A DNA stretch of 64,000 bases, taken from assembly GCA_963715335.1 (NCBI GenBank), contig CAVQRZ010000023.1, positions 83,711 to 147,710 on the forward strand, written 5' to 3'. The notes beneath the pieces are model-generated. The model saw nothing but the letters and a program-made list of their open reading frames with translations. It had not been told where the DNA came from and did no database searches. A program made the position numbers and the translations under genes. Positions 1,105-59,888 of the stretch are shown one piece after another (positions within the stretch are counted from its first letter, which is position 1; every line of letters begins with the position of its first letter). The DNA is from an uncultured delta proteobacterium (GTDB taxonomy: Bacteria; Desulfobacterota; Desulfuromonadia; Desulfuromonadales; BM103).

Positions 1105-2727
1105 ATGTCCATGTTTTGCTACCAATGTGAACAAGCTGCCCAAGGCACCGGCTGCACCGCAATCGGCGTCTGCGGCAAGCAACCCGATGTCGCCGCCCTG
1201 CAGGACCTGCTGGTCTACACCCTCAAGGGGATCGCATTCTGGGCCGACAAGGCCCGGACGAAAGGCGCCAGGGACCAGGAAATCGACCGCTTCATGATCG
1301 ACGGCCTCTTCACCACAGTTACCAATGTCGACTTCGATCCGGAAGCCGTCTCCAAATTCATTGCCGAGGGCGTCCGCCTGCGCGGCAAGGCCAAGCAGCT
1401 TGCCGGTGCGTTTGACGGCAAAGTTCCCCCGGCCGCACAGGACTGGGCTCTGCCGAAATCAATTGACGAGCAGGTCAAGCTTGGCGAACTGCATGGCGTG
1501 AAGGATTACACCGTCGATCCCGACATCCACTCGGTACGTGAGATCACCATGTACGGGATCAAGGGGTACGCCGCCTATGCCGACCACGCCAAGATCCTCG
1601 GCAAGGAATCCGAAGAGATTTATGCCTACACGCACAAGGCCCTTGCCGCCCAACTCGACGACAGCCTCGACCTGATGGCTAACGTCGGCCTGGCCATGGA
1701 GGCCGGCAAGATCAACTATGTGACCATGGAGCTGCTCAACCAGGCCCATGTCGAGGCTTACGGTCATCCGGTCCCGACTCCGGTCCAGCTTGGCACCAAG
1801 GCCGGCAAGGCGATCCTGGTCTCCGGCCACGACCTGAAATTCCTCGAAGAATTGCTCAAGCAGACCGAGGGCACCGGCATCAACATCTACACCCACGGCG
1901 AGATGCTGCCGGCCCACGGCTACCCCGGCCTGAAGAAATATGCCCACCTGGTTGCCAATTTCGGTGGCGCCTGGCAGGACCAGCACAAGGAATTCGCCGA
2001 ATTTCCCGGTGCCATCATCTTCAACACCAACTGCATCCAGAAGCCGGCTGAGAGCTACAAGGACCGCCTCTTCACCTGGGGCCTGGTCCAGTGGCCCGGC
2101 GTCAAGCATGTCAACGGCTGGGATTTTTCCGAAGTCATTGCCAAGGCGAAACAATGCGCAGGTTTTACGGACAACCCCGGCCAGGAGATCCTCACCGGCT
2201 TTGGTCACAACGCCATCCTCGGCGTCGCCGACAAGGTCATCGCAGGCGTCAAGGCCGGCGCCATCAAGCACTTCTTCCTGGTTGGCGGCTGCGACGGTGC
2301 CAAGTCTGGTCGTAACTACTACACCGAGTTTGCCGAGCAGGCACCGAAAGACACCGTCATCCTGACCCTGGCCTGCGGCAAGTTCCGCTTCAACAAGCTC
2401 GACCTCGGCGATATCGGCGGCATCCCGCGCCTGCTCGACGTCGGCCAGTGCAACGACGCCTACAGCGCCATCCAGGTCGCTCTGGCTTTGGCGGACGCCT
2501 TCGAGTGCGGTGTCAACGACCTGCCGCTCTCCATGGTCCTGTCCTGGTACGAGCAGAAGGCGGTTGCGATACTTTTGACCCTGCTCCACCTCGGCATCAA
2601 GAACATCAAGCTCGGACCGTCACTGCCGGCGTTCATCACGCCGAACGTGCTCAACTTCTTGGTTGAGAACTTCAATATCGGACCGATCACAACTGCAGAA
2701 CAGGATCTCAAAGAGATTCTCGGTTAA
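1105..2727 (+). CDS. hcp: Hydroxylamine reductase / hybrid-cluster protein
   Basis: 540 aa. N-terminal MFCYQCEQAAQGTGCT...GVCGK Cys cluster and a full-length Hcp-like sequence. RBS GGAGGAG lies upstream. Confidence 0.95.
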   Translation: MSMFCYQCEQAAQGTGCTAIGVCGKQPDVAALQDLLVYTLKGIAFWADKARTKGARDQEIDRFMIDGLFTTVTNVDFDPEAVSKFIAEGVRLRGKAKQLAGAFDGKVPPAAQDWALPKSIDEQVKLGELHGVKDYTVDPDIHSVREITMYGIKGYAAYADHAKILGKESEEIYAYTHKALAAQLDDSLDLMANVGLAMEAGKINYVTMELLNQAHVEAYGHPVPTPVQLGTKAGKAILVSGHDLKFLEELLKQTEGTGINIYTHGEMLPAHGYPGLKKYAHLVANFGGAWQDQHKEFAEFPGAIIFNTNCIQKPAESYKDRLFTWGLVQWPGVKHVNGWDFSEVIAKAKQCAGFTDNPGQEILTGFGHNAILGVADKVIAGVKAGAIKHFFLVGGCDGAKSGRNYYTEFAEQAPKDTVILTLACGKFRFNKLDLGDIGGIPRLLDVGQCNDAYSAIQVALALADAFECGVNDLPLSMVLSWYEQKAVAILLTLLHLGIKNIKLGPSLPAFITPNVLNFLVENFNIGPITTAEQDLKEILG

Positions 2728-3032: not shown

Positions 3033-4442
3033 TCAGGCTTGCGAGATCCGGTCCTTGCCCGACAACTTAGCCTTGTACATAGCCTTGTCAGCAAGTTGCA
3101 CGAGTTGGTCGCAAGATTGGGCGCTGTTACCTGTCAAGGTTGAGGTTCCTAAGCTGATAGTGACCTGCTCACCATCGAGACATTCAAACCGGTGGTCACG
3201 GATTATCGAGCCTAACCGGGTTGCCAGCTGCAGGGCTCCTTCAGAGGTTGTGTTCGGCAGGACAACCGCAAATTCTTCTCCTCCATATCGTGCCGGCACA
3301 TCACTCAACCTGGCGACGTCCTTCGTGAGCTTACCGATTTCTCTTAGGACAGTATCTCCCTGGGTATGGCCATAATTGTCGTTGATCCGCTTAAAATTAT
3401 CTATGTCAAAGAAGACCAGAGAAAGGGGTGTGTGGTAGCGTCTCGCTCTGCTGAATTCTTTTTCAAGACAACTGTAAAAATGTTGATGGTTGTAGAGTTT
3501 TGTCAATCCGTCCCGAATCGACATTTCCTCAAAATACTCTTGTGCGGTTTGCATCGACTCAAACAGGACAGCCGTTTCCAATGCGTTGGCGGAGAGGTTC
3601 GCCACCAATTGACACAACTTGTGGATTCTTTTGGTGACGCAACCGGGTAGCGGGCTCGCCATCCGCAAGAGGAAAGTCCCTATGACACTTTCTTTTTTAA
3701 TAACCGGAATGACAACGATTGAATTGAAATTAAGACCAGCGATCTGTGCTCTTACAGAATCCATGAGCGGGTCGTTTTTTATGTCATTGATGATGACGGG
3801 TTGTTTGGTGGCTAGGGCCTTGCTGATTTCCGGGTAGTTGCATAGTTCCAGTTTTATCTCTTCGTAAATCTCAAGGTCGCTACTGGCTTTGACATAAGGG
3901 ATGCCGTCATCCTTGATGCTGACAATGGAACAGCGTGCTTCATCAATGATGGCCGACATCCTGTCGACGATCAGATGAAGTATCGTCATGGGATTGCGTA
4001 TCGCAGAAATGTTTTCTGCCAGTTCAAGGAGCAGTATCAAATCTCTTGGTTCTAAATCGGCATAGTAATCTTTGGGCCTGAGATGGGCACCTACACGTGC
4101 AAGGATTTCTGGAAGACACATCGGTTTTGTAATGTAATCGTCCGCCCCAACCTTTAACCCCCGAGCAATGTCTTCCTTTTTTGCAAGGGAGGTGAACAAG
4201 ATGATGGGGATTTTTCTTGTCTTGACACTCTCCTTGAGAGTACGACAAGCATCAATCCCGTTTTTTCCTGGCATTTCAACATCCATGATAATCAGATTGG
4301 GTTCCTGTGTCCTGGCAAGACGGATGGCCTCATCACCACTCACTCCTTCTATGATGTCGTATTGATCTTTCAAAGCATCTTTCAGAACACTCCTGAAAAA
4401 GAGCTCGTCATCGACAACTAGAATTTTCAGTCCTGTTTTCAC
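3033..4442 (-). CDS. Response-regulator receiver + GAF + GGDEF diguanylate cyclase
   Basis: REC N-terminus (ILVVDDE...MDVEMPG). C-terminal GGEEF with an RxxD I-site five residues upstream (RLSDVPARYGGEEF). Confidence 0.9.
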   Translation of the reverse strand: MKTGLKILVVDDELFFRSVLKDALKDQYDIIEGVSGDEAIRLARTQEPNLIIMDVEMPGKNGIDACRTLKESVKTRKIPIILFTSLAKKEDIARGLKVGADDYITKPMCLPEILARVGAHLRPKDYYADLEPRDLILLLELAENISAIRNPMTILHLIVDRMSAIIDEARCSIVSIKDDGIPYVKASSDLEIYEEIKLELCNYPEISKALATKQPVIINDIKNDPLMDSVRAQIAGLNFNSIVVIPVIKKESVIGTFLLRMASPLPGCVTKRIHKLCQLVANLSANALETAVLFESMQTAQEYFEEMSIRDGLTKLYNHQHFYSCLEKEFSRARRYHTPLSLVFFDIDNFKRINDNYGHTQGDTVLREIGKLTKDVARLSDVPARYGGEEFAVVLPNTTSEGALQLATRLGSIIRDHRFECLDGEQVTISLGTSTLTGNSAQSCDQLVQLADKAMYKAKLSGKDRISQA

Positions 4443-4600: not shown

Positions 4601-4636
4601 AAAAAAATGGCCACTTGGTGAGATCCAAGTGGCCAT
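4601..4636 (-). terminator. Rho-independent terminator downstream of the OsmC-like gene
   Basis: ATGGCCACTTGG-6 nt-CCAAGTGGCCAT followed by T7 on the minus strand. Confidence 0.75.
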
Positions 4637-4711
4637 CATTGTGTTAATTGGCAAGCGTCCCAAATGCCTCTATCAAAAGTTGGGACTGGATTTGAATACT
4701 GATCCTATCCT

Positions 4712-5176
4712 TCAGGCTGAAACCAGCTCAAGAGAATGTTCGATCCGGATACACCCGGTAACGCTCATCGCTGCGGGGCACTTTTCAATATAATTTTCCA
4801 TTGCCCATCGAGCATCAGCTTCTTCTTGGTGACTGAGTTTCAGTACATAGTGAACGCGAATCACAGTAATTTTGAGTATACCCTCTACGTTCTCAATATC
4901 GCCTTCGACATTGGCCCGAAAAAGATCGGTGTGGGTTCTTATCTTTTTGGTCGCCAGCACGCTGGCGAAGGTGCCCATCATTCAAGCCGAGACTGCACCG
5001 ACGATGTGATCCAAAGTAGCCGCGTGCTCTTCTACCGGATCGACCTTGTAAAATTTTTGTATTCCGCCATGGACCCCATAGAAGACCGGATCAGAAAAGC
5101 CTTCTATTTGAGCTATCCTGATCGGACCCCTGTCTCTTGTGATGGTGATGCGTGATGTGTGAATTATTTCAGCCAT
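4712..5176 (-). CDS. OsmC/Ohr-family thiol peroxidase-like protein, candidate selenoprotein (in-frame TGA at 4982-4984)
   Basis: Two abutting same-frame ORFs (4982-5176 and 4712-4981) are separated only by TGA. Read through, they give ...LDHIVGAVSA-U-MMGTFASVL... The TGA sits where OsmC/Ohr proteins carry their first conserved Cys. The second conserved Cys is present (IEKCPAAMS). Confidence 0.6.
4951..4968 (-). promoter_or_regulatory. Candidate bacterial SECIS hairpin
   Basis: mRNA UCGCCAG-CGUG-CUGGCGA starts 13 nt after the UGA. The loop GU falls at positions 25-26 counted from the U of UGA, close to the canonical 23-24. Confidence 0.45.
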
Positions 5177-5283
5177 TGTAATGTCTCCTTTCTTAAGAAC
5201 ATCGACATGTAAAACGTTACCACATTGCAGTGACCGCGCTCACAAGGCAGAGGGGAAATGTGTCATGGAAGTTGTTTGAACTA

Positions 5284-5314
5284 ACCTGGTCAAAAATAGC
5301 TGACCTGGTCAAAA
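5284..5314. promoter_or_regulatory. Perfect 12-nt direct repeat ACCTGGTCAAAA x2 (19-nt period) upstream of the OsmC-like gene
   Basis: Copies at 5284-5295 and 5303-5314, about 110-140 nt upstream of the start at 5176. Confidence 0.35.
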
Positions 5315-5526
5315 TTTCTACAACTTTCACGAACAAGACGTCATCTTCCCCCTGCAAAATCTACTTGAACAAGACTACTTTAACGCATTGACTCTATATA
5401 GCAAAGCTGTTGCATCCAAAACCTTGATAAAATCAGCAAAATGGTTTACCAATGGTGACGGATTGCTGCGATAAACCAGGCAATTCCGGGTTTGCCTGAA
5501 GAGCTTGACAGGAGCGCGTGGCGCAC

Positions 5527-5943
5527 TCAACTCATGCCTTCAAAAGTCAGAACCTTTGCCGTAAAATCAGCGTCCAGCCTTCTCGGTTTACGTTTCTGGT
5601 AATCGAAACAGACCAGCGCCGTTTCTCCTTCGGCCGTGACTTCACCATTTCGTTCGATGCGATATGCCATACTGAAGGACGAGCGGCTCAAATCGCGCAC
5701 CCTGACAGCAATCAACAACTCATCATCGTGAAACATCTCCGCCCGATACTTGACATGCGCCTCGGGCAGAATAATCCCACAGCCCCCGCCTATATCGAGC
5801 TCTGAATAGCCGCCGAGATTTTTCAGGTAACCAATCCGGGCATCCTGAAAAAAATTCAGGACCGCAGAGTTGGCGACATGCCCACCGTAGTTGACATCGG
5901 CAATCCGTACTCTGTACGGGAGCGTGAACTTGAATCCTTGCAT
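5527..5943 (-). CDS. Hotdog-fold acyl-CoA thioesterase (4HBT/YbgC type)
   Basis: 138 aa. YRVRIADVNYGGHVANSAVLNFFQDARIGYL is a typical thioesterase N-terminus. Confidence 0.8.
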   Translation of the reverse strand: MQGFKFTLPYRVRIADVNYGGHVANSAVLNFFQDARIGYLKNLGGYSELDIGGGCGIILPEAHVKYRAEMFHDDELLIAVRVRDLSRSSFSMAYRIERNGEVTAEGETALVCFDYQKRKPRRLDADFTAKVLTFEGMS

Positions 5944-5999: not shown

Positions 6000-6815
6000 T
6001 CATTTCTGGCATTTTGCGCAATGGTAAGTCGATCGCTGTCCCAATCTTGTCTGTATAATGGCGCTACCGCAGGCTGTACAAGGTTCTCCCGCCCTGCCGT
6101 AAACCCGGAGTTCCTGTTTGAAATAGCCGGGCCGGCCCTCGGTGTCCATAAAATCCCTGATCGTAGTCCCACCGGCGGCAATCGCTTCGGCCAGAACCTC
6201 CTGCACAGATTGGACGAGCAGCGCAAACGCTTTTCTGCTGACCCCGCCAGCTTGCCTGCCTGGTGAAATGCGCGCGCGGAATAACGCTTCGCTGGCGTAG
6301 ATATTGCCGACTCCAACAACCACATGCGCGTCCATGATGAACGGTTTGACGGCTACTTTACGATCCCGAGAGGTGCGAAAAAGGTAATCGGCGTTGAAAA
6401 GACCGGTTAACGGCTCCGGCCCAAGGCTGACCAGGCGTTCATGTTGCAGGGGATTTGTGTCTGTCCAGAAGATGGCACCGAACCGCCTTGAGTCATTGAA
6501 GCGCAAAACCGAGCGGTCGGTAAAGAACAACTCTACATGATCGTGTTTGCGTTTCTCTTCGCCAGACCGGCAAACCCGCAGATGACCGGTCATGCCCAGG
6601 TGGATTATCAGCGTTCCCTGTTCGAAGTTCATCAACAGGTACTTGGAGCGCCGCTCCACTGCGCAGACTTTTTGTTTTATGAGGGTTGCATTGAGGTCCG
6701 GCGGGACCGGCCACCGTAATGAGGCATTGTGAACCAGCACCCGTTCTACATACTTGCCCCTGACCAGTGGCTCAATCCCACGTCGGGTGGTTTCAACTTC
6801 CGGCAGTTCAGGCAT
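6000..6815 (-). CDS. mutM: Formamidopyrimidine-DNA glycosylase
   Basis: MPELPEVETTRRGI N-terminus. C-terminal zinc finger CTACGSAI...YHCAKCQ. Confidence 0.95.
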   Translation of the reverse strand: MPELPEVETTRRGIEPLVRGKYVERVLVHNASLRWPVPPDLNATLIKQKVCAVERRSKYLLMNFEQGTLIIHLGMTGHLRVCRSGEEKRKHDHVELFFTDRSVLRFNDSRRFGAIFWTDTNPLQHERLVSLGPEPLTGLFNADYLFRTSRDRKVAVKPFIMDAHVVVGVGNIYASEALFRARISPGRQAGGVSRKAFALLVQSVQEVLAEAIAAGGTTIRDFMDTEGRPGYFKQELRVYGRAGEPCTACGSAIIQTRLGQRSTYHCAKCQK

Positions 6816-18431: not shown

Positions 18432-19823
18432 ATGAATAATTTACAGTCAACCCTCGTCGACTCTCACGCCCATCTCGATTCAAAGCCCTACGCAACCGAC
18501 CTGGACGATGTCATAGTGCGCGCCAAAGAGAATGGTGTCGCATACATCCTGACGGTCGGCTGCGACCTCGAGAGTTCCCGTGCCAGTGTCGACCTGGCAA
18601 TTCGTTACCCGAATGTCTACGCCAGCGTCGGCGTCCACCCGCATGATGCCGACCAGGTCAATGAACAGGTCATGGCAGAACTGGCTTGCATGATCGAATC
18701 GGTAGACAAGATCGTTGCCGTTGGCGAAACAGGACTCGACTTCTACCGCGACCGCTCACCGCGCGACCAGCAGAAAGAGGCTTTTCGCCGTCACATACAG
18801 CTGGCCAAAGAGACTGGCAAACCACTGATCATCCACGACCGCGACGCACATGATGAGGTCGTACGGATTCTGCGGGACGAACACGCCGCAGAGACAGGTG
18901 GTGTCCTGCACTGTTTCTCCGGCAATCTGGAGATGGCCCGCAAATGCGTAGAGATGGGCTTTTACATTTCCTTCGCCGGCCCCCTGACCTACCCGAAGAA
19001 TGACGCTTTGCGCAGTATCGCGGCAGCGCTGCCGGTCGATGTCATGCTGGTGGAAACTGACTGCCCTTACCTGTCACCGCAGAGCTGGCGCGGCAAGCGC
19101 TGTGAACCGGCCTACGTCCGCACAACTGCCGAGAAACTGGCGGAAATCAAGGGACTGACCATCGAAGATGTGGCTCGCATCACCAGCCTCAATGCCTGGC
19201 GCCTGTTCGGTATCGGTGAGATCGATCAAAGCACCAGAATCGCGTACGTCATCCGCAACAGTCTCTATCTCAACATAACCAACCGGTGCACCAACAGCTG
19301 CACCTTCTGTGCAAAGTTCAGGGATTTCACAGTCAAGGGGCACCAGCTCTGCCTGGAACGAGAACCGACCGTCGAGGAGGTCATGCAAGCGATCGGCGAT
19401 CCATCCTCTTACGATGAGGTCGTCTTCTGCGGCTACGGCGAGCCCCTGCTTCGGCTGGACCTGGTCAAAGAGATTGCCAGCTACCTGAGGCAGAACAACA
19501 TAACGGTCCGGATCAACACCGACGGCCAGGCCAACCTGGTGCATGGCCGAAACATCCTGCCGGAGCTCGCCGGCCTGGTCGATTCGATCAGTGTGTCGCT
19601 CAACGCTCCCGACGCAGAAAGCTACCAGAAGATCTGCAGATCAGAGTTCGGCGAAAAAGGCTATGCCGCCATCAAGGATTTCCTCGCAGAAGCGGTACGG
19701 CACATCCCTTCCGTCACTGCCACGGCTGTTACCCTGCCAGGAATAGATATAGATGCATGCCGTAAGGTCGCCAAACAACTTCAGGTGGAATTTCGTGAAA
19801 GAGTTTACAACGAAGTAGGATGA
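18432..19823 (+). CDS. TatD-family hydrolase fused to a radical SAM domain
   Basis: N-terminal VDSHAHLD...ETGLDFY...HCFSG...ETDCPYL (TatD). From about aa 270 onward, NITNRCTNSCTFC (CX3CX2C) and a short rSAM domain, in one uninterrupted ORF. Confidence 0.85.
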   Translation: MNNLQSTLVDSHAHLDSKPYATDLDDVIVRAKENGVAYILTVGCDLESSRASVDLAIRYPNVYASVGVHPHDADQVNEQVMAELACMIESVDKIVAVGETGLDFYRDRSPRDQQKEAFRRHIQLAKETGKPLIIHDRDAHDEVVRILRDEHAAETGGVLHCFSGNLEMARKCVEMGFYISFAGPLTYPKNDALRSIAAALPVDVMLVETDCPYLSPQSWRGKRCEPAYVRTTAEKLAEIKGLTIEDVARITSLNAWRLFGIGEIDQSTRIAYVIRNSLYLNITNRCTNSCTFCAKFRDFTVKGHQLCLEREPTVEEVMQAIGDPSSYDEVVFCGYGEPLLRLDLVKEIASYLRQNNITVRINTDGQANLVHGRNILPELAGLVDSISVSLNAPDAESYQKICRSEFGEKGYAAIKDFLAEAVRHIPSVTATAVTLPGIDIDACRKVAKQLQVEFRERVYNEVG

Positions 19824-46864: not shown

Positions 46865-49404
46865 TTAGACATAAGACACGCGGTCACGGTCGCCCTGAGG
46901 ACCGTCGTCATCGGATTCACCAAGACCCAGCTCACGACGCAGGTTTTTGATCAGCTCAGAAACGTTGCGGAAGAACGAATCCCTTTCAGCCACTAGCTGG
47001 AAAGCTTCCAGGGCCTCGAGAAGCTGACCATTCATCTGGTAAAGCATGCCGAGTTCAAAATTCAAGGTCATGCGGCCCTCATCACTCAGGTTATCCAAGG
47101 CCAGGCCTTGTTTGAAGATCTCCATGGCCAACTCGGTTGCACCGGATTCACTGTGGCATTGGCCGATCAAGGTTACGCAGTCGATTGCACGAGACGGGTC
47201 ATGGGAGGCTTTTTCAAACTCCGCTATGGCATCATCATAAAGACCCATTTCCTTGTAGGCAATGCCCAGGTTGAAGTGTGATTCCGTGTCTGCCGAATCG
47301 AGTTCCGAGACCGTGTTCTGAGTCAGTTCTTCATCAACCTTGCTGTCAGCACCGAAAGAATCGAGGAGATCGGTCGCGGCAAACAGATCATCATCCCGGA
47401 GGTCTGTCATAAGATCTACGAAATCAACGTGTTCGGACACTTCTTCAGCAGTTTGCAGCCTTTGGTTGATCTCACCCATCATGGCGTGCAGTTCCGGAAG
47501 ATCAGGGCAGTACTCCAACAGGGTCTGAACGACTCTTGTGGCATCCTCATAGAGTCCCTGCTGCAGGTAGAACTCAGCTTCTTCGAGCTCTGCTCCAACA
47601 TTGAGAGAGGCAGCAAAACTCGATCTGTTGCCAGTTACTGCGGCGACTGCAGGAGCCGCTTCGTCGAAATCTTCGAGTTCATGAAGTTCTTCGAACTCCT
47701 CGAGTTCTTCAAGGTCTTCCACTTCATCGAGTTCTTCCAGCTCCTCGAGATCGTCCGGTCCATCGAGTGCCTCCAGGCCCTGTAGCTCTGCCAGCTCATC
47801 CGTTTCAACCGGCTCGTCAGTGCCAGTGTCGTCCAGATAAAGGCCTGCATCGAGGGCGGGGCCACGTTCGGATTCAAGGCGATGTTCTGCCCCGACGTCC
47901 ACCAGGAGAACTGCGTCAACCCCGGTTTCCTTACTTTCACCAACGGTTTCTTCAGTATCGGACCCTGCCTGTCTCCCGCCGCCGAGTCATCAGCAAAATC
48001 ATCGTCGAAATCGAGGGACAGGTCGCCCATATCGTCAAAGTCGATTTCCACTTCTACTTCCACTTCGACATCAGCATCGGCAGCCGGAACAGTTTCAGAC
48101 TCCATCTGAGGCGGCCCAGGAGAATCCTTGACTGCGTCATCGACTCCAGCGAACGGTGCTTCAAGGTCAAGATCGAGCAGGATGTCTGCGGCCGCGACCT
48201 TCTCTGCCGGGAGGCCTTGTTCCTGCATTTCAGTACTGAGTGACGGCACTTTGAGATCGGGGGAAGCTTCCTCGCCAATCATGTCCAGCTCTTCTACATC
48301 ATCGATCGCTCCGTCGAGGACGGCATCATCGGCCGTCTCCTCGGGAAGATCAGAAGAGGCATAAGATCTGTCCAGGTCATCGAACTTCGACTTATCACCA
48401 ACCGCCTCGTAGATGGCAGAAAGCGTATCGGCAACAACCGCATCATCGGCTAAAGACTCTTTCAGCTCTTCGTAAAAGCCCTTGAGAGCCGCGACGCGAC
48501 CTGCCCGTAAAAACGCGTTTTTCCAGCTTTCGAGGCGGTCGCGGGCACGCTCGAACTCACCGAAATCGATACAAACCCTGACATAATATTCACGGAGATC
48601 GAGATCCCCCTGGTTAATTTTCAAGAGATGTTTGAGGGTGAGTCGGGCGTTGGCAAAATCCCGGCTGGCAACGTAAGCTTCAGCCAGGCACCGATTTACC
48701 TCCTGGTCTTCAGGGGCTTGTTTGAGCAGCTCCTTGAGAAGCGATATGGCCTTCTCAACCAAACCATTGCCAACCAATGCGGCAGCCAGCGGTAGACGCG
48801 ACGGCCCATCTTCCGGGCAAATGTCCAGAAAGCGGTCGTAGAGCTTTATAACCTTTGCATGCTCACCCTTGGCGGACAGGGAGGCAATAAGCTCATGAAA
48901 CCGCTCCAAAGCCTGGTCGTTCTGACCGGTGATCATGTAACATTCTGCAACCTTGGCCAGAACGTTGAGATTGCCCGGATCCAGTTCGGCCATCTTCTCC
49001 AGAACTTTGAGGGCTTCATGGTGCATCTTGTTCTTGTCATAGAACGAGATCAGGTTGCGATACTCGGTCAGGGCGTTGCCAACCAGCCCCTGTTTTTCAT
49101 TGAGTTCTGCGAGACGATGGTAGAGATCGACGCGTGACGAATCGATCTTCTGCATCTGTTTGTAGACCGCAATCGCCTTGAGGTAGAAGCCCGTTTCCGT
49201 GTAGTGCTTGGCAACGACTTCGTATTCCTTCAATGCATCCTCGGTGCGATTATCACGACTGAGAAGTTCGGCAAACTTCTGCCGATTGCGCACATCCTTG
49301 GGAAAAGCGCCGACCAGTTTCTGGTACTCACCGATCGCTTTCGGCAGCTGCCCTTTTGCAAGGAATTTCTGTGCGCTTTCGAGGAGTTTGTCTTTACTTG
49401 CCAA
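46865..49404 (-). pseudogene. Large TPR protein with a central acidic region, apparently interrupted by a 1-nt frameshift near 47950-47986
   Basis: The N-terminal TPR ORF (from 49404) turns to junk after ...DFDDDFADDSAAGD. The acidic sequence continues in the frame of ORF 46865-47902 (SDTEETVGESKETGVDAVLLVDVGAEH...). The span of 2540 nt is not a multiple of 3. Confidence 0.6.
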
Positions 49405-55168: not shown

Positions 55169-55436
55169 GCGCAGTCCCATCCTCAAGCGTGTTTCACAGC
55201 AATCTTAAATAACGTTATTCGGCAAACCCTGCAAGCCAAATCAGCCGCCGTCAAGATAAAGATAATTTTCCCCGTTGCTGATAAACCTTGAGCAATTACG
55301 CTTATTTCTCGATAATAGGCAGAAATCGACCATCTCCGCAAAGAACGCAATCGTGGGAAAGCAAGATCGCGATCATGGCAAGCTCGGCAGACGGTCTTTT
55401 CAGGTCGTCAGCTTTATTCACAGCATGAGGTCCATC

Positions 55437-57293
55437 ATGTCACAAAATGACAAAAGCAATCACCAGAGCCAGGCACATCCGATGAATCGAGCCACGGACA
55501 AAGTCGTGCCGAACAAGTATATGCTGACGATCAAGGATGTCGCCAAGCTCCTGCATCAGCGTAGCAGGCTCAGCGACGAGCAATACCAGATGGTTCTCGA
55601 GCGCGGCGATGCCCAGGCGGCCAGGTTGAACAGCCACCTGAAAACCGGCAAGGTAAAAAAAGATGTCTACCTCGCGGAACTCGCATCTCCGGCCCAGATC
55701 ATTACCTCATTCAACCTGGAGATTCCGGCGACCCAGAAGAAGTTGACTGAAGATGTCATAACCGAGCTGATCGCCCAGGCCGCGGGGATGGAATACATCA
55801 AGATCGACCCGCTCAAGCTGGAGCTCGATGTCGTCACCGACCAGATTCCCCGCGCCTTCGCCCTGAAGAATCTGGTCGTACCGATCGATGCAAAAGAAGG
55901 CGTTGCGACCATCGCAGTGGCTGATCCATACAATATCAGGCCGATCGAAGACCTGCAGCATGCCCTGGGTATCCAGATCAGGCGCATCCTGGCCTCGCGC
56001 AGCGATGTCCTGAAAATTCTCGAGGAGTTTTTCGGCTTTCAGGCCTCGGTGAGGGCCGCCCAGTTGGATATGGGGCTACGCTCGGAGTTGTCAAACCTTG
56101 AACAGCTGTTCAAGATGCGCGGCCGCGATGAAATCGAGAGTAGCGACCAGCACATCATTTCCGCCGTTGAATTTCTGCTCAAATACGCCTTTGATCAACG
56201 GGCCAGCGATATCCATATTGAACCGAAGCGCGAAAAATCGATGATCCGTTTCCGCGTCGACGGGGTACTGCACAACATTCACACCGTGCCGATCAACCTG
56301 CACCCGGCCATGATATCGCGCCTGAAACTGCTTTCCCGGCTTGATGTCGCTGAGAAACGCCGCCCCCAGGACGGACGCATCAAGACGGAACATATGGGCA
56401 AGGACATCGAACTGCGCGTCTCAACCCTGCCGGTCGCTTTCGGCGAAAAGGTAGTCATCCGTATTTTCGACCCTGAGATTCTCATGCAGAAACTCGACCG
56501 GATCGGCTTTAACGAGCGCGAGTATAAACTCTACAGTTCATTCATCAGAATGCCGCACGGCATCATCCTGGTAACCGGCCCCACCGGCAGCGGCAAAACC
56601 ACGACCCTCTATTCGTCCCTGAAAACCATCTCTTCGCCGGAAATCAACATTATCACCGTCGAGGATCCGATCGAGATGGTCATGGAAGACTTCAACCAGG
56701 TCGGAGTCCAGGCGGCGATCGACGTCACCTTTGCCACCGTCCTGCGCAACATCCTGCGCCAGGACCCCGATGTCCTGATGATCGGTGAAATCCGCGACCG
56801 GGAAACCGCCAGTAACGCTGTGCAAGCGGCCTTGACCGGCCACCTGGTTCTCTCGACTCTGCACACCAATGACTCCCCCTCTGCGATCGCCCGGCTCCTG
56901 GATATCGGCATCCCGGCCTTCCTGATCAGCTCCACGGTCAGCGGCATCATCGCCCAGCGCCTGCTCAGGACAATCTGCCAGGAATGCAAGTTCGAGAGGG
57001 TCCTCAGCGATGACGAAATGGTCTACCTTGGGCTGGCGAAAAAAATATACAAGGTCTGGCAAGGCAAGGGCTGCGACGCCTGCCGTGGCACCGGCTACAA
57101 GGGGCGGACCGGGATCTTTGAGGTTCTTGAGATAACCGAGCGACTCAAGGCCCAGATTACTGAGCAGACCGACATGACAAAAATTTATGAGATCGCCAGA
57201 GCGGACGGGATGGTCAGCCTGCGCGAGTTGGCCATTCAGAAGCTCCTTGACGGGCACACGACCTTCCAGGAGATCGTTTCCGTCACCGGCTGA
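55437..57293 (+). CDS. GspE/PilB-family secretion ATPase (orphan)
   Basis: T2SSE N-domain, Walker A GPTGSGKTTTLYS, Asp/His boxes and a tetra-Cys CQEC...CDAC. Start could be 55437 or 55425. Confidence 0.85.
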   Translation: MSQNDKSNHQSQAHPMNRATDKVVPNKYMLTIKDVAKLLHQRSRLSDEQYQMVLERGDAQAARLNSHLKTGKVKKDVYLAELASPAQIITSFNLEIPATQKKLTEDVITELIAQAAGMEYIKIDPLKLELDVVTDQIPRAFALKNLVVPIDAKEGVATIAVADPYNIRPIEDLQHALGIQIRRILASRSDVLKILEEFFGFQASVRAAQLDMGLRSELSNLEQLFKMRGRDEIESSDQHIISAVEFLLKYAFDQRASDIHIEPKREKSMIRFRVDGVLHNIHTVPINLHPAMISRLKLLSRLDVAEKRRPQDGRIKTEHMGKDIELRVSTLPVAFGEKVVIRIFDPEILMQKLDRIGFNEREYKLYSSFIRMPHGIILVTGPTGSGKTTTLYSSLKTISSPEINIITVEDPIEMVMEDFNQVGVQAAIDVTFATVLRNILRQDPDVLMIGEIRDRETASNAVQAALTGHLVLSTLHTNDSPSAIARLLDIGIPAFLISSTVSGIIAQRLLRTICQECKFERVLSDDEMVYLGLAKKIYKVWQGKGCDACRGTGYKGRTGIFEVLEITERLKAQITEQTDMTKIYEIARADGMVSLRELAIQKLLDGHTTFQEIVSVTG

Positions 57294-59536: not shown

Positions 59537-59888
59537 TGGTGGAGGTGGCGGGAATCGAACCCGCGTCCGAAAATCTTTCACGTCAGGCGTCTACATGCGT
59601 AGTTCGTGTTTTGCTTAACCCGTAAGAGCTCCCACGAACAGGATATTCTTGCGGGGGAGTCCGCTTAAGTTTCGCCTTCACGCCACGGACACTCGCGAAG
59701 ACTATCCCACTAAATTAGCGTCTCAAAACCCACATGGGCGATGAATCAGGAGACGAGGCAGCAATTAAGCTGCCAGTGCGTAACGAACGTCAGTGTCGGC
59801 GTTTGTTAGTGTTGGGCTTTGTTACGGAGCCAGCCCACTCCGGCATGCAACCAGCGCTTCCAATCCCCGTCGAAACCTTGGCACCCCC
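59537..59888 (-). ncRNA. ssrA: tmRNA (SsrA)
   Basis: 5' end GGGGGUGCCAAGGUUUCGACGGGG. 3' end GCGGGUUCGAUUCCCGCCACCUCCACCA. Internal tag frame 59765-59800 encodes ADTDVRYALAA-stop. Lies adjacent to smpB. Confidence 0.95.

Follow-up and report, generated by a model that had tools for sequence, protein, structure and literature searches.

OsmC-like selenoproteins have been known since 2005, when three sequences with a UxxT motif (U denoting selenocysteine) were found in the Sargasso Sea and assigned to COG1765 (Zhang, Fomenko & Gladyshev, PMC1088965). They were seen again, as five sequences, in the Global Ocean Sampling (GOS) data in 2008 (PMC2398784) and are included in reviews from 2022 and 2026 (PMC9312934, PMC13188914), whereas a survey of deltaproteobacterial symbionts placed OsmC-like proteins among the families not detected as selenoproteins (PMC1976440). 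Here we analyze a 64,000-nucleotide (nt) stretch of contig CAVQRZ010000023.1 from an uncultured delta proteobacterium (hereafter the window), in which two open reading frames (ORFs) on the minus strand, separated only by an in-frame TGA, together form a predicted OsmC/Ohr-fold peroxidase gene. The internal UGA of this gene very probably encodes selenocysteine (Sec) at residue 65. An earlier reading of the window, made from its letters alone (the sequence-only reading), had pointed to OsmC-like selenoproteins from both metagenomic and deltaproteobacterial surveys; the marine metagenomes support the first half of that statement, while the symbiont survey runs counter to the second.

Comparison with the UxxT family (reference MCS5647933.1; COG1765/YhfA) reveals a common framework. 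Both proteins belong to the PF02566 superfamily, both would carry Sec in place of the first catalytic Cys on the same helix, and both were predicted computationally from Sec/Cys pairs together with a bacterial selenocysteine insertion sequence (bSECIS). However, BLASTP aligns the reference with the window protein at ~21% identity over only 47 residues (pairwise E 5e-4), albeit with U on U. While the reference reads U-L-L-T (...GIGFULLT...), the window protein and its 82 relatives (defined below) read U-[ML]-[ML]-G-T, with Thr at +4 and not at +3, and the N-terminal region of the window clade (HTSRI...YYGVHGGI...EHAATLDH) also differs from that of the UxxT form. The two further differ in ecology, the window clade being found in anaerobic Thermodesulfobacteriota and allied lineages and the UxxT form in surface-ocean metagenomes, and in size, with 3-5 published Sec sequences for the UxxT family as against at least 484 stretches for the window family, the best 80 of which have the TGA. 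These comparisons indicate that the window clade and the UxxT form share a superfamily and a predicted Sec position and represent different subfamilies.

Two other described systems bear on this locus. The two-Cys thiol peroxidases Ohr and OsmC (6d9n, 1zb9, 1n2f, 1nye, 1qwi) have the same predicted fold and the same proposed chemistry; their peroxidatic residue lies on a long helix and their resolving Cys follows in a C-P motif ~68 residues on, as in the window protein, the differences being that Sec would replace the peroxidatic Cys and that identity is only 10-19%. The Sec-containing peroxiredoxins and peroxiredoxin (Prx)-like oxidoreductases of Desulfuromonadia (D. soudanensis, G. sulfurreducens; PMC12013277 supplement) occur in the same host lineages and likewise have a redox Cys changed to Sec with an in-ORF bSECIS just downstream, but theirs is a thioredoxin fold with a TxxU or WUPxC motif, whereas an OsmC fold is predicted for the window protein.

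Signature strings of the window clade are absent from the supplements of the deep-Sep catalogue (known-family representatives and 20 full selenoproteomes), and our literature search found no experimental description of a Sec-containing Ohr or OsmC. Judged by these comparisons, the window clade is a divergent subfamily, apparently not yet catalogued, within a known kind of selenoprotein. A more specific proposal, which we offer tentatively and consider possible but somewhat short of probable, is that the clade constitutes uncatalogued "form 2" OsmC-like selenoproteins, that is, a Sec-dominant U-x-x-G-T...C-P subfamily in which Sec would have arisen separately from the marine UxxT/COG1765 form and which would be carried as a self-contained promoter-gene-terminator cassette. 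Our genome scan places members of the clade in hundreds of species genomes of anaerobes.

The in-frame TGA and the catalytic position

The gene and its associated signals are listed below.

5176 to 4985 (last codon 4987..4985), minus strand: upstream ORF of 64 amino acids (aa) beginning with ATG, read directly from the sequence
4984..4982, minus strand: in-frame TGA, the proposed codon of Sec65 (peroxidatic residue) and the sole separator of the two ORFs, which share one frame
4981 to 4712, minus strand: downstream ORF of 89 aa, from ATG 4981 to the stop at 4714..4712, in the same frame as the upstream ORF
4712..5176, minus strand: joined gene for the predicted OsmC/Ohr-like selenoprotein, 154 codons (64 + Sec + 89) followed by the terminal TGA 4714..4712
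4968..4951, minus strand: SECIS-like hairpin UCGCCAG-CGUG-CUGGCGA, with a 7-base-pair (bp) stem UCGCCAG/CUGGCGA and loop CGUG at 4961..4958
4780..4778, minus strand: TGC of Cys133, the proposed resolving cysteine, within a K-C-P-A-A (KCPAAMS) motif
5185..5192, minus strand: Shine-Dalgarno sequence GAAAGGAG, 8 nt 5' of ATG 5176, read directly from the sequence
5215..5241, minus strand: upstream block GAGCGCGGTCACTGCAATGTGGTAACG, 35-65 nt 5' of the ATG
4606..4637, minus strand: intrinsic terminator, a 13-bp stem with a T-run, ~75 nt 3' of the gene stop

The sequence-only reading had joined the two same-frame ORFs, split only by the TGA at 4982-4984, into a single protein of 154 aa, and this arrangement is borne out by the sequence. 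In translation the junction reads ...ATLDHIVGAVSA-[TGA]-MMGTFASVLA..., and the predicted peptide spanning Sec65 would be ...VGAVSA-U-MMGTFASVLATK. Relatives of the gene were collected in a scan of species-representative genomes, which confirmed at least 484 stretches encoding them; the 82 related loci referred to throughout are the best 80 of these stretches plus two metagenome contigs, or 83 sequences when the window is included. Mean pairwise differences among the 83 sequences at codon positions 1, 2 and 3 are 0.10-0.16, 0.11-0.12 and 0.56-0.58 upstream of the TGA, and 0.23, 0.20 and 0.54 downstream of it. Since this third-position bias is equal on both sides of the TGA, both halves are coding in one frame under purifying selection, and at least 60 codons upstream of the TGA are open in all of the loci, the window included. 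We read 5176..4712 as a single monocistronic gene of 154 residues.

The TGA itself is found at codon 65 in all 82 related loci (83/83 counting the window). These relatives comprise 76 distinct sequences at 62-96% identity, and are thus not copies of one contaminant. Their carriers are labelled Desulfuromonadales, Geopsychrobacteraceae, Deferrisomatales, Desulfobacterales, Syntrophobacteraceae and Deferrimicrobium/Deferrimicrobia, with further labels of Nitrospirota, Methylomirabilota, an Olavius symbiont and a few Actinomycetota and Gemmatimonadota bins. Complete chromosomes with the gene include OY781919.1, OY970341.1, CP070768.1 and CP070652.1, and Malonomonas rubra and Desulfuromonas carbonis are cultured examples of carriers. 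Protein databases carry the mark of this codon as well. A homologue search returned ~10 full-length relatives at 56-61% identity, while more than 100 of the 120 best matches were "proteins" of 88-95 aa, 77-96% identical, that start at or just before the residue following the TGA. Similarly, in an exhaustive profile search of 1.84 billion cluster representatives, many matches stop at profile position 64 with their own C-terminus or begin at profile position 66 with their own residue 1, which we take to mean that this family is systematically split at residue 65.

Several lines of evidence place the predicted protein in the OsmC/Ohr family, as the sequence-only reading had proposed. Scored with C in place of the stop, the joined 154-aa protein matches Pfam OsmC (PF02566) over residues 56-147 with 37.3 bits against a gathering cutoff of 27.5. 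A single-sequence search of the PDB yielded nothing relevant and only the family profile reached Ohr, aligning U65 with the peroxidatic Cys (ysaCf) and C133 with the resolving Cys (vCPys) of 6d9n. For structure we used an AlphaFold2 model of the closest Cys form (P0001), which is 59% identical to the window protein. This model (predicted local distance difference test score 84.5, predicted template modeling score 0.80) has residue 65 in a long helix, 47-76, and its top 50 Foldseek matches in the PDB are all OsmC/Ohr proteins (probability 1.00, template modeling score 0.42-0.61). No Ohr/OsmC subfamily or equivalog model in NCBIfam scored above its cutoff, the best match being TIGR03563 (SACOL1771 peroxiredoxin) with 16.9 bits against 166, and NCBIfam lacks a model of the family itself.

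Both catalytic positions can be traced through the homologues. In a full-length alignment of 50 sequences (46 cluster representatives of at least 125 aa and four reference Cys-form homologues), column 65 holds Cys in 37, as part of a C-x-x-G-T motif, and column 133, in C-P, does so in 38. At the TGA column of the homologue alignment, six full-length relatives have Cys and five a nominal "Trp" (discussed below), and the genes of three Cys forms (L083-L085) all have TGC at the aligned codon. The alignment against Cys homologues suggested in the sequence-only reading thus does place a Cys at the TGA codon, in the column of the Ohr peroxidatic Cys, and the second conserved Cys that it had noted in KCPAAMS is present downstream and aligns with the Ohr resolving Cys. 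Its motif, A-x-x-x-C, has to be replaced, as the family pattern is C/U-x-x-G-T...C-P. In summary, the UGA is invariant in orthologues and Cys occupies its place in paralogous or ancestral forms; by profile and alignment, the predicted protein is a member of the OsmC/Ohr family whose TGA falls exactly at the Cys position of its homologues.

The hairpin downstream of the TGA

Published bSECIS criteria describe a loop of 3-9 nt on a stem of 4-16 bp, a G within the first two nucleotides of the loop, a UGA-to-loop distance of 16-37 nt, and a minimum free energy of at most -7.5 kcal/mol (PMC13188914). The hairpin of the window, which the sequence-only reading had pointed out 13 nt after the UGA at a SECIS-like distance, agrees with all four published criteria, with 13 nt from the UGA to the stem, 20 nt from the UGA to the loop and a free energy of -10.7 kcal/mol. 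Similarly, 78 of the 82 relatives pass a strict contiguous-stem bSECIS test. As a background, 4.7% of the 2,426 TGA triplets in the window pass the SECIS criteria, and 1.4% do so with equal stability.

The hairpin region aligns without gaps in 78 distinct sequences, and its six core pairs form in 96-100% of them. Overall, 86.9% of cells are paired, compared with 80.4% in shuffles (none of 500 shuffles reaches the observed value), and the observed register exceeds every slid register. One stem pair joins two third codon positions, those of an F/L/M codon and of the second Ala codon, and is GC in 51 sequences, CG in 23, GU in two and AU in one, with a single break. By parsimony on the gene tree the CG state corresponds to about one clade, AU and GU have separate origins, and the outer pair changed from CG to UA at least three times.

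The strongest evidence for the hairpin is constraint at synonymous sites. Third-position entropy in the stem is 0.09 bits at Ala+6 (C in 82/83) and 0.0 bits at Leu+9 (G in 82/82), and that of the loop Val codon is 0.60 bits, compared with 1.3-2.0 bits at 28 other conserved four-fold sites in the gene. In Cys forms, the hairpin at this register is weakened or has decayed (-4.3 to -9.2 versus -11.3 +/- 1.0 kcal/mol), and the peptide at this position is relaxed to A-S/T-V-L-A. The hairpin segment 13-31 nt after the UGA is therefore selected in its own right and conforms to the bacterial SECIS consensus. No Rfam model fits the hairpin at either gathering or permissive thresholds, which gave chance sub-threshold matches only.

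Readings of the in-frame TGA

In the mechanism that we consider very likely, the in-ORF hairpin would be bound by SelB-GTP-Sec-tRNA(Sec) with the ribosome positioned at the UGA, and Sec would be inserted. In the folded protein, Sec65 would lie on the long helix opposite Cys133 of the C-P motif, in the manner of the catalytic Cys pair of Ohr/OsmC. Sec65 would then reduce a hydroperoxide to the alcohol, turning into a selenenic acid, which Cys133 would resolve to an intramolecular selenenylsulfide, and a cellular dithiol reductant (a lipoyl-protein or thioredoxin-like protein, as for Ohr/OsmC) would regenerate the enzyme. The decoding signals in this scheme are observed, and the chemistry is one that we infer from the Ohr/OsmC family.

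An alternative is that the gene is truly split, with the UGA acting as a stop and the second of two polypeptides (64 and 89 aa) being made by termination-reinitiation at UGA-AUG, so that an OsmC-like assembly would form without its first catalytic residue. The AUG AUG directly after the stop does resemble a coupling junction, and gene callers universally annotate the halves separately. However, the Met-Met pair is also present in single-chain Cys forms (C-M-M-G-T) and is for this reason best seen as a constraint on the protein and not as a start signal; CUG or CUC replaces the first AUG in two relatives, and nothing comparable to the Shine-Dalgarno sequence GAAAGGAG precedes ATG 4981. A true stop should also drift as the end of the gene does: among the 83 sequences the genuine gene-end stop is TGA in 35, TAA in 25 and TAG in 23, while the internal stop is TGA in every one. 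Moreover, a split would remove exactly the catalytic Cys that is kept in full-length relatives (37/50), and would leave the selection on synonymous sites of the hairpin unexplained. We consider a split gene very unlikely.

A comparably small probability attaches to recoding that is independent of Sec, in which a near-cognate tRNA (Trp or Cys) or a local reassignment of the code would read the UGA and the hairpin would be a generic stimulator of read-through. This explanation draws on the gene callers that gave Trp at this position (P0002, P0005 and others) and on the fact that no Sec machinery was found in the window. Nevertheless, Trp at the catalytic position was rejected as a candidate: the DNA of two "Trp" proteins that we checked has TGA, and the calls are artefacts of gene callers applying genetic code 4 to short contigs. 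Of 46 genes in the window, 25 end in TGA, more than in any other stop and including the selenoprotein gene itself, and the genetic code is therefore standard. No homologue has a real Trp codon, and the alternative residue is Cys, which is the hallmark of Sec/Cys pairs. In addition, the hairpin fits the geometry of a SelB-type bSECIS, including a loop G followed by G/U, and Sec use is known from the host lineages (PMC1794560, PMC12013277).

The last explanation, a functionless nonsense change from TGC/TGT to TGA in a pseudogene or through sequencing or assembly error, has a negligible probability, for although TGC and TGT are one base from TGA, the identical TGA is present in 82 independent assemblies of many lineages (which effectively excludes the TGC or TGT that, according to the sequence-only reading, resequencing might uncover), both halves are under strong purifying selection with no other disruption of the frame, and the related loci are too diverse to stem from a single contaminant.

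As for the assignment of Sec65 itself, a number of points weigh against it. Its support is wholly computational, and the reductant and substrate named above are pure inference. The structured-RNA scan and the comparison of size-matched ORFs with NCBIfam found no selA, selB, selD or tRNA-Sec in the 64-kb window, and a search for SelD homologues, which are abundant in Desulfuromonadia, tied no Sec machinery to the genome of any family member. With respect to the hairpin, 4 of the 82 relatives fail the simple contiguous-stem SECIS test, and independent compensatory events are few, ~3-6 by parsimony and not dozens. The 66-nt fold of the window taken alone is no better than shuffles (z = -1.25), and since this single-sequence fold is not significant the case for the hairpin rests on comparative data. 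With respect to the protein, the profile alignment to Ohr 6d9n is statistically marginal (E = 0.021), and counterparts of the Ohr/OsmC catalytic Arg and Glu were not located in the window protein, where the invariant residues R14, R20, E50 and D56 are candidates for these roles.

The wider lineage offers context for this assignment. Desulfuromonadia are documented users of Sec, with six selenoproteins including SelD in D. acetoxidans and 13 each in D. soudanensis and G. sulfurreducens (PMC1794560, PMC12013277). Searching the window by tblastn with 10 Desulfuromonadia selenoproteins (from D. soudanensis and G. sulfurreducens, and including SelD) gave no match. Neither tRNA-Sec nor SelD turned up in ~500 kb of related loci, and the only other selenoprotein gene was found in one relative (L044), where it adjoins the OsmC-Sec copy at a distance of a few hundred nt (3741-4247, minus strand, TGA 4085..4083). 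It encodes a Prx-like thiol:disulfide oxidoreductase with a canonical W-U-P-x-C motif (...YRGYW-U-PFC...), and here too gene callers break the gene in two.

If Sec65 is correct, its value lies mainly in annotation: it introduces no new mechanism and leaves the concept of Sec decoding unchanged, and would not surprise a specialist. Public annotation currently cuts the gene at residue 65, giving two fragments or an 89-aa "OsmC family protein" at NCBI, and dozens of 50%-identity cluster representatives end at 64 or start at 66. If selenoprotein catalogues and annotation models included the family, hundreds of genomes would be corrected and the selenoproteome counts of Desulfuromonadia, Desulfobacterales, Syntrophobacterales and Deferrimicrobia would rise. 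The gene would also extend the use of Sec to an Ohr/OsmC-type peroxidase in strict anaerobes. Because natural Cys counterparts exist, Sec and Cys catalysis could be compared within one scaffold, and form 2, if true, would offer the most accessible natural setting in which to learn what an Ohr-type peroxidase gains from Sec.

Genomic setting and other features of the window

The Shine-Dalgarno motif AAAGG(A/G)G is kept at equal spacing in all nine of the closest relatives, and the block GAGCGCGGTCACTGCAATGTGGTAACG is kept in most of these nine, with sequence farther upstream being unalignable. A sigma-70 consensus scan did not call this block, which, judging by its conservation and position, is probably a promoter or an operator/regulator site. 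The closest relatives, L003 and L004, resemble the window at the nucleotide level (84-89%) only within 4601-5340, which corresponds to promoter, gene and terminator, and the flanks are unrelated. Near-identical copies are also found in bins labelled Actinomycetota, Gemmatimonadota and Deferrimicrobium (e.g. L038 versus L035). The confined similarity and the near-identical copies across bins suggest either horizontal transfer of a cassette or contamination of bins. As the gene is a free-standing cassette, its function has to be deduced from the protein alone.

A tandem direct repeat, TTTTGACCAGGT, is present at 5314-5303 and 5295-5284 (minus strand, period 19), ~110-140 nt 5' of the start codon. 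As a conserved operator it was rejected, since L003 has only part of it and the other relatives lack it; it could instead serve as an operator in this lineage alone. At the other end of the gene, a sub-threshold Rfam match to the Qrr small RNA covers the terminator hairpin (4601-4686, minus strand; 25.4 bits against a gathering threshold of 50, E = 0.028) and is most likely due to chance.

The genes in the vicinity are as follows.

Neighbor of the gene: EVE-domain protein
1105-2727, plus strand: hybrid-cluster protein (Prismane/Hcp), E = 4.7e-173
3033-4442: receiver-GAF-GGDEF regulator
5527-5943: 4HBT thioesterase
6000-6815: Fpg/MutM

No neighboring or partner gene is conserved across 80 loci, and no OhrR-type regulator is found nearby. 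The top "cluster" in the comparison of neighbors is an antisense "shadow" ORF of 139 aa (4736-5155, plus strand) that lies across the selenoprotein gene; its recurrence in 56 related loci is no more than a by-product of sense-strand conservation, and gene callers could mistake it for a gene. Hcp, ~2 kb from the gene, is the sole window neighbor that also lies near a relative's copy (L013:1-1305, 89% aa identity, in a different orientation), which could reflect a loose association with oxidative or nitrosative stress, or chance.

Elsewhere in the window, the sole structured RNA gene detected is that of a transfer-messenger RNA (tmRNA; 59537-59888, minus strand, Rfam 201.7 bits) with the tag peptide ADTDVRYALAA. 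TatD nucleases and the TatD-associated radical SAM proteins are usually described as associated partners. A 463-aa ORF at 18432-19823 (plus strand) has the two fused, with a TatD-family nuclease at residues 8-260 (TIGR00010) and the "TatD-associated radical SAM" at residues 270-459 (TIGR04038). Finally, a type IV pilus neighborhood, which includes a PilB/TfpB assembly ATPase, occupies 46865-49404 (minus strand) and 55275-57293 (plus strand), and two overlapping calls of SgmX-like tetratricopeptide repeat (TPR) ORFs, of 345 and 589 aa, may represent one longer or frameshifted gene.

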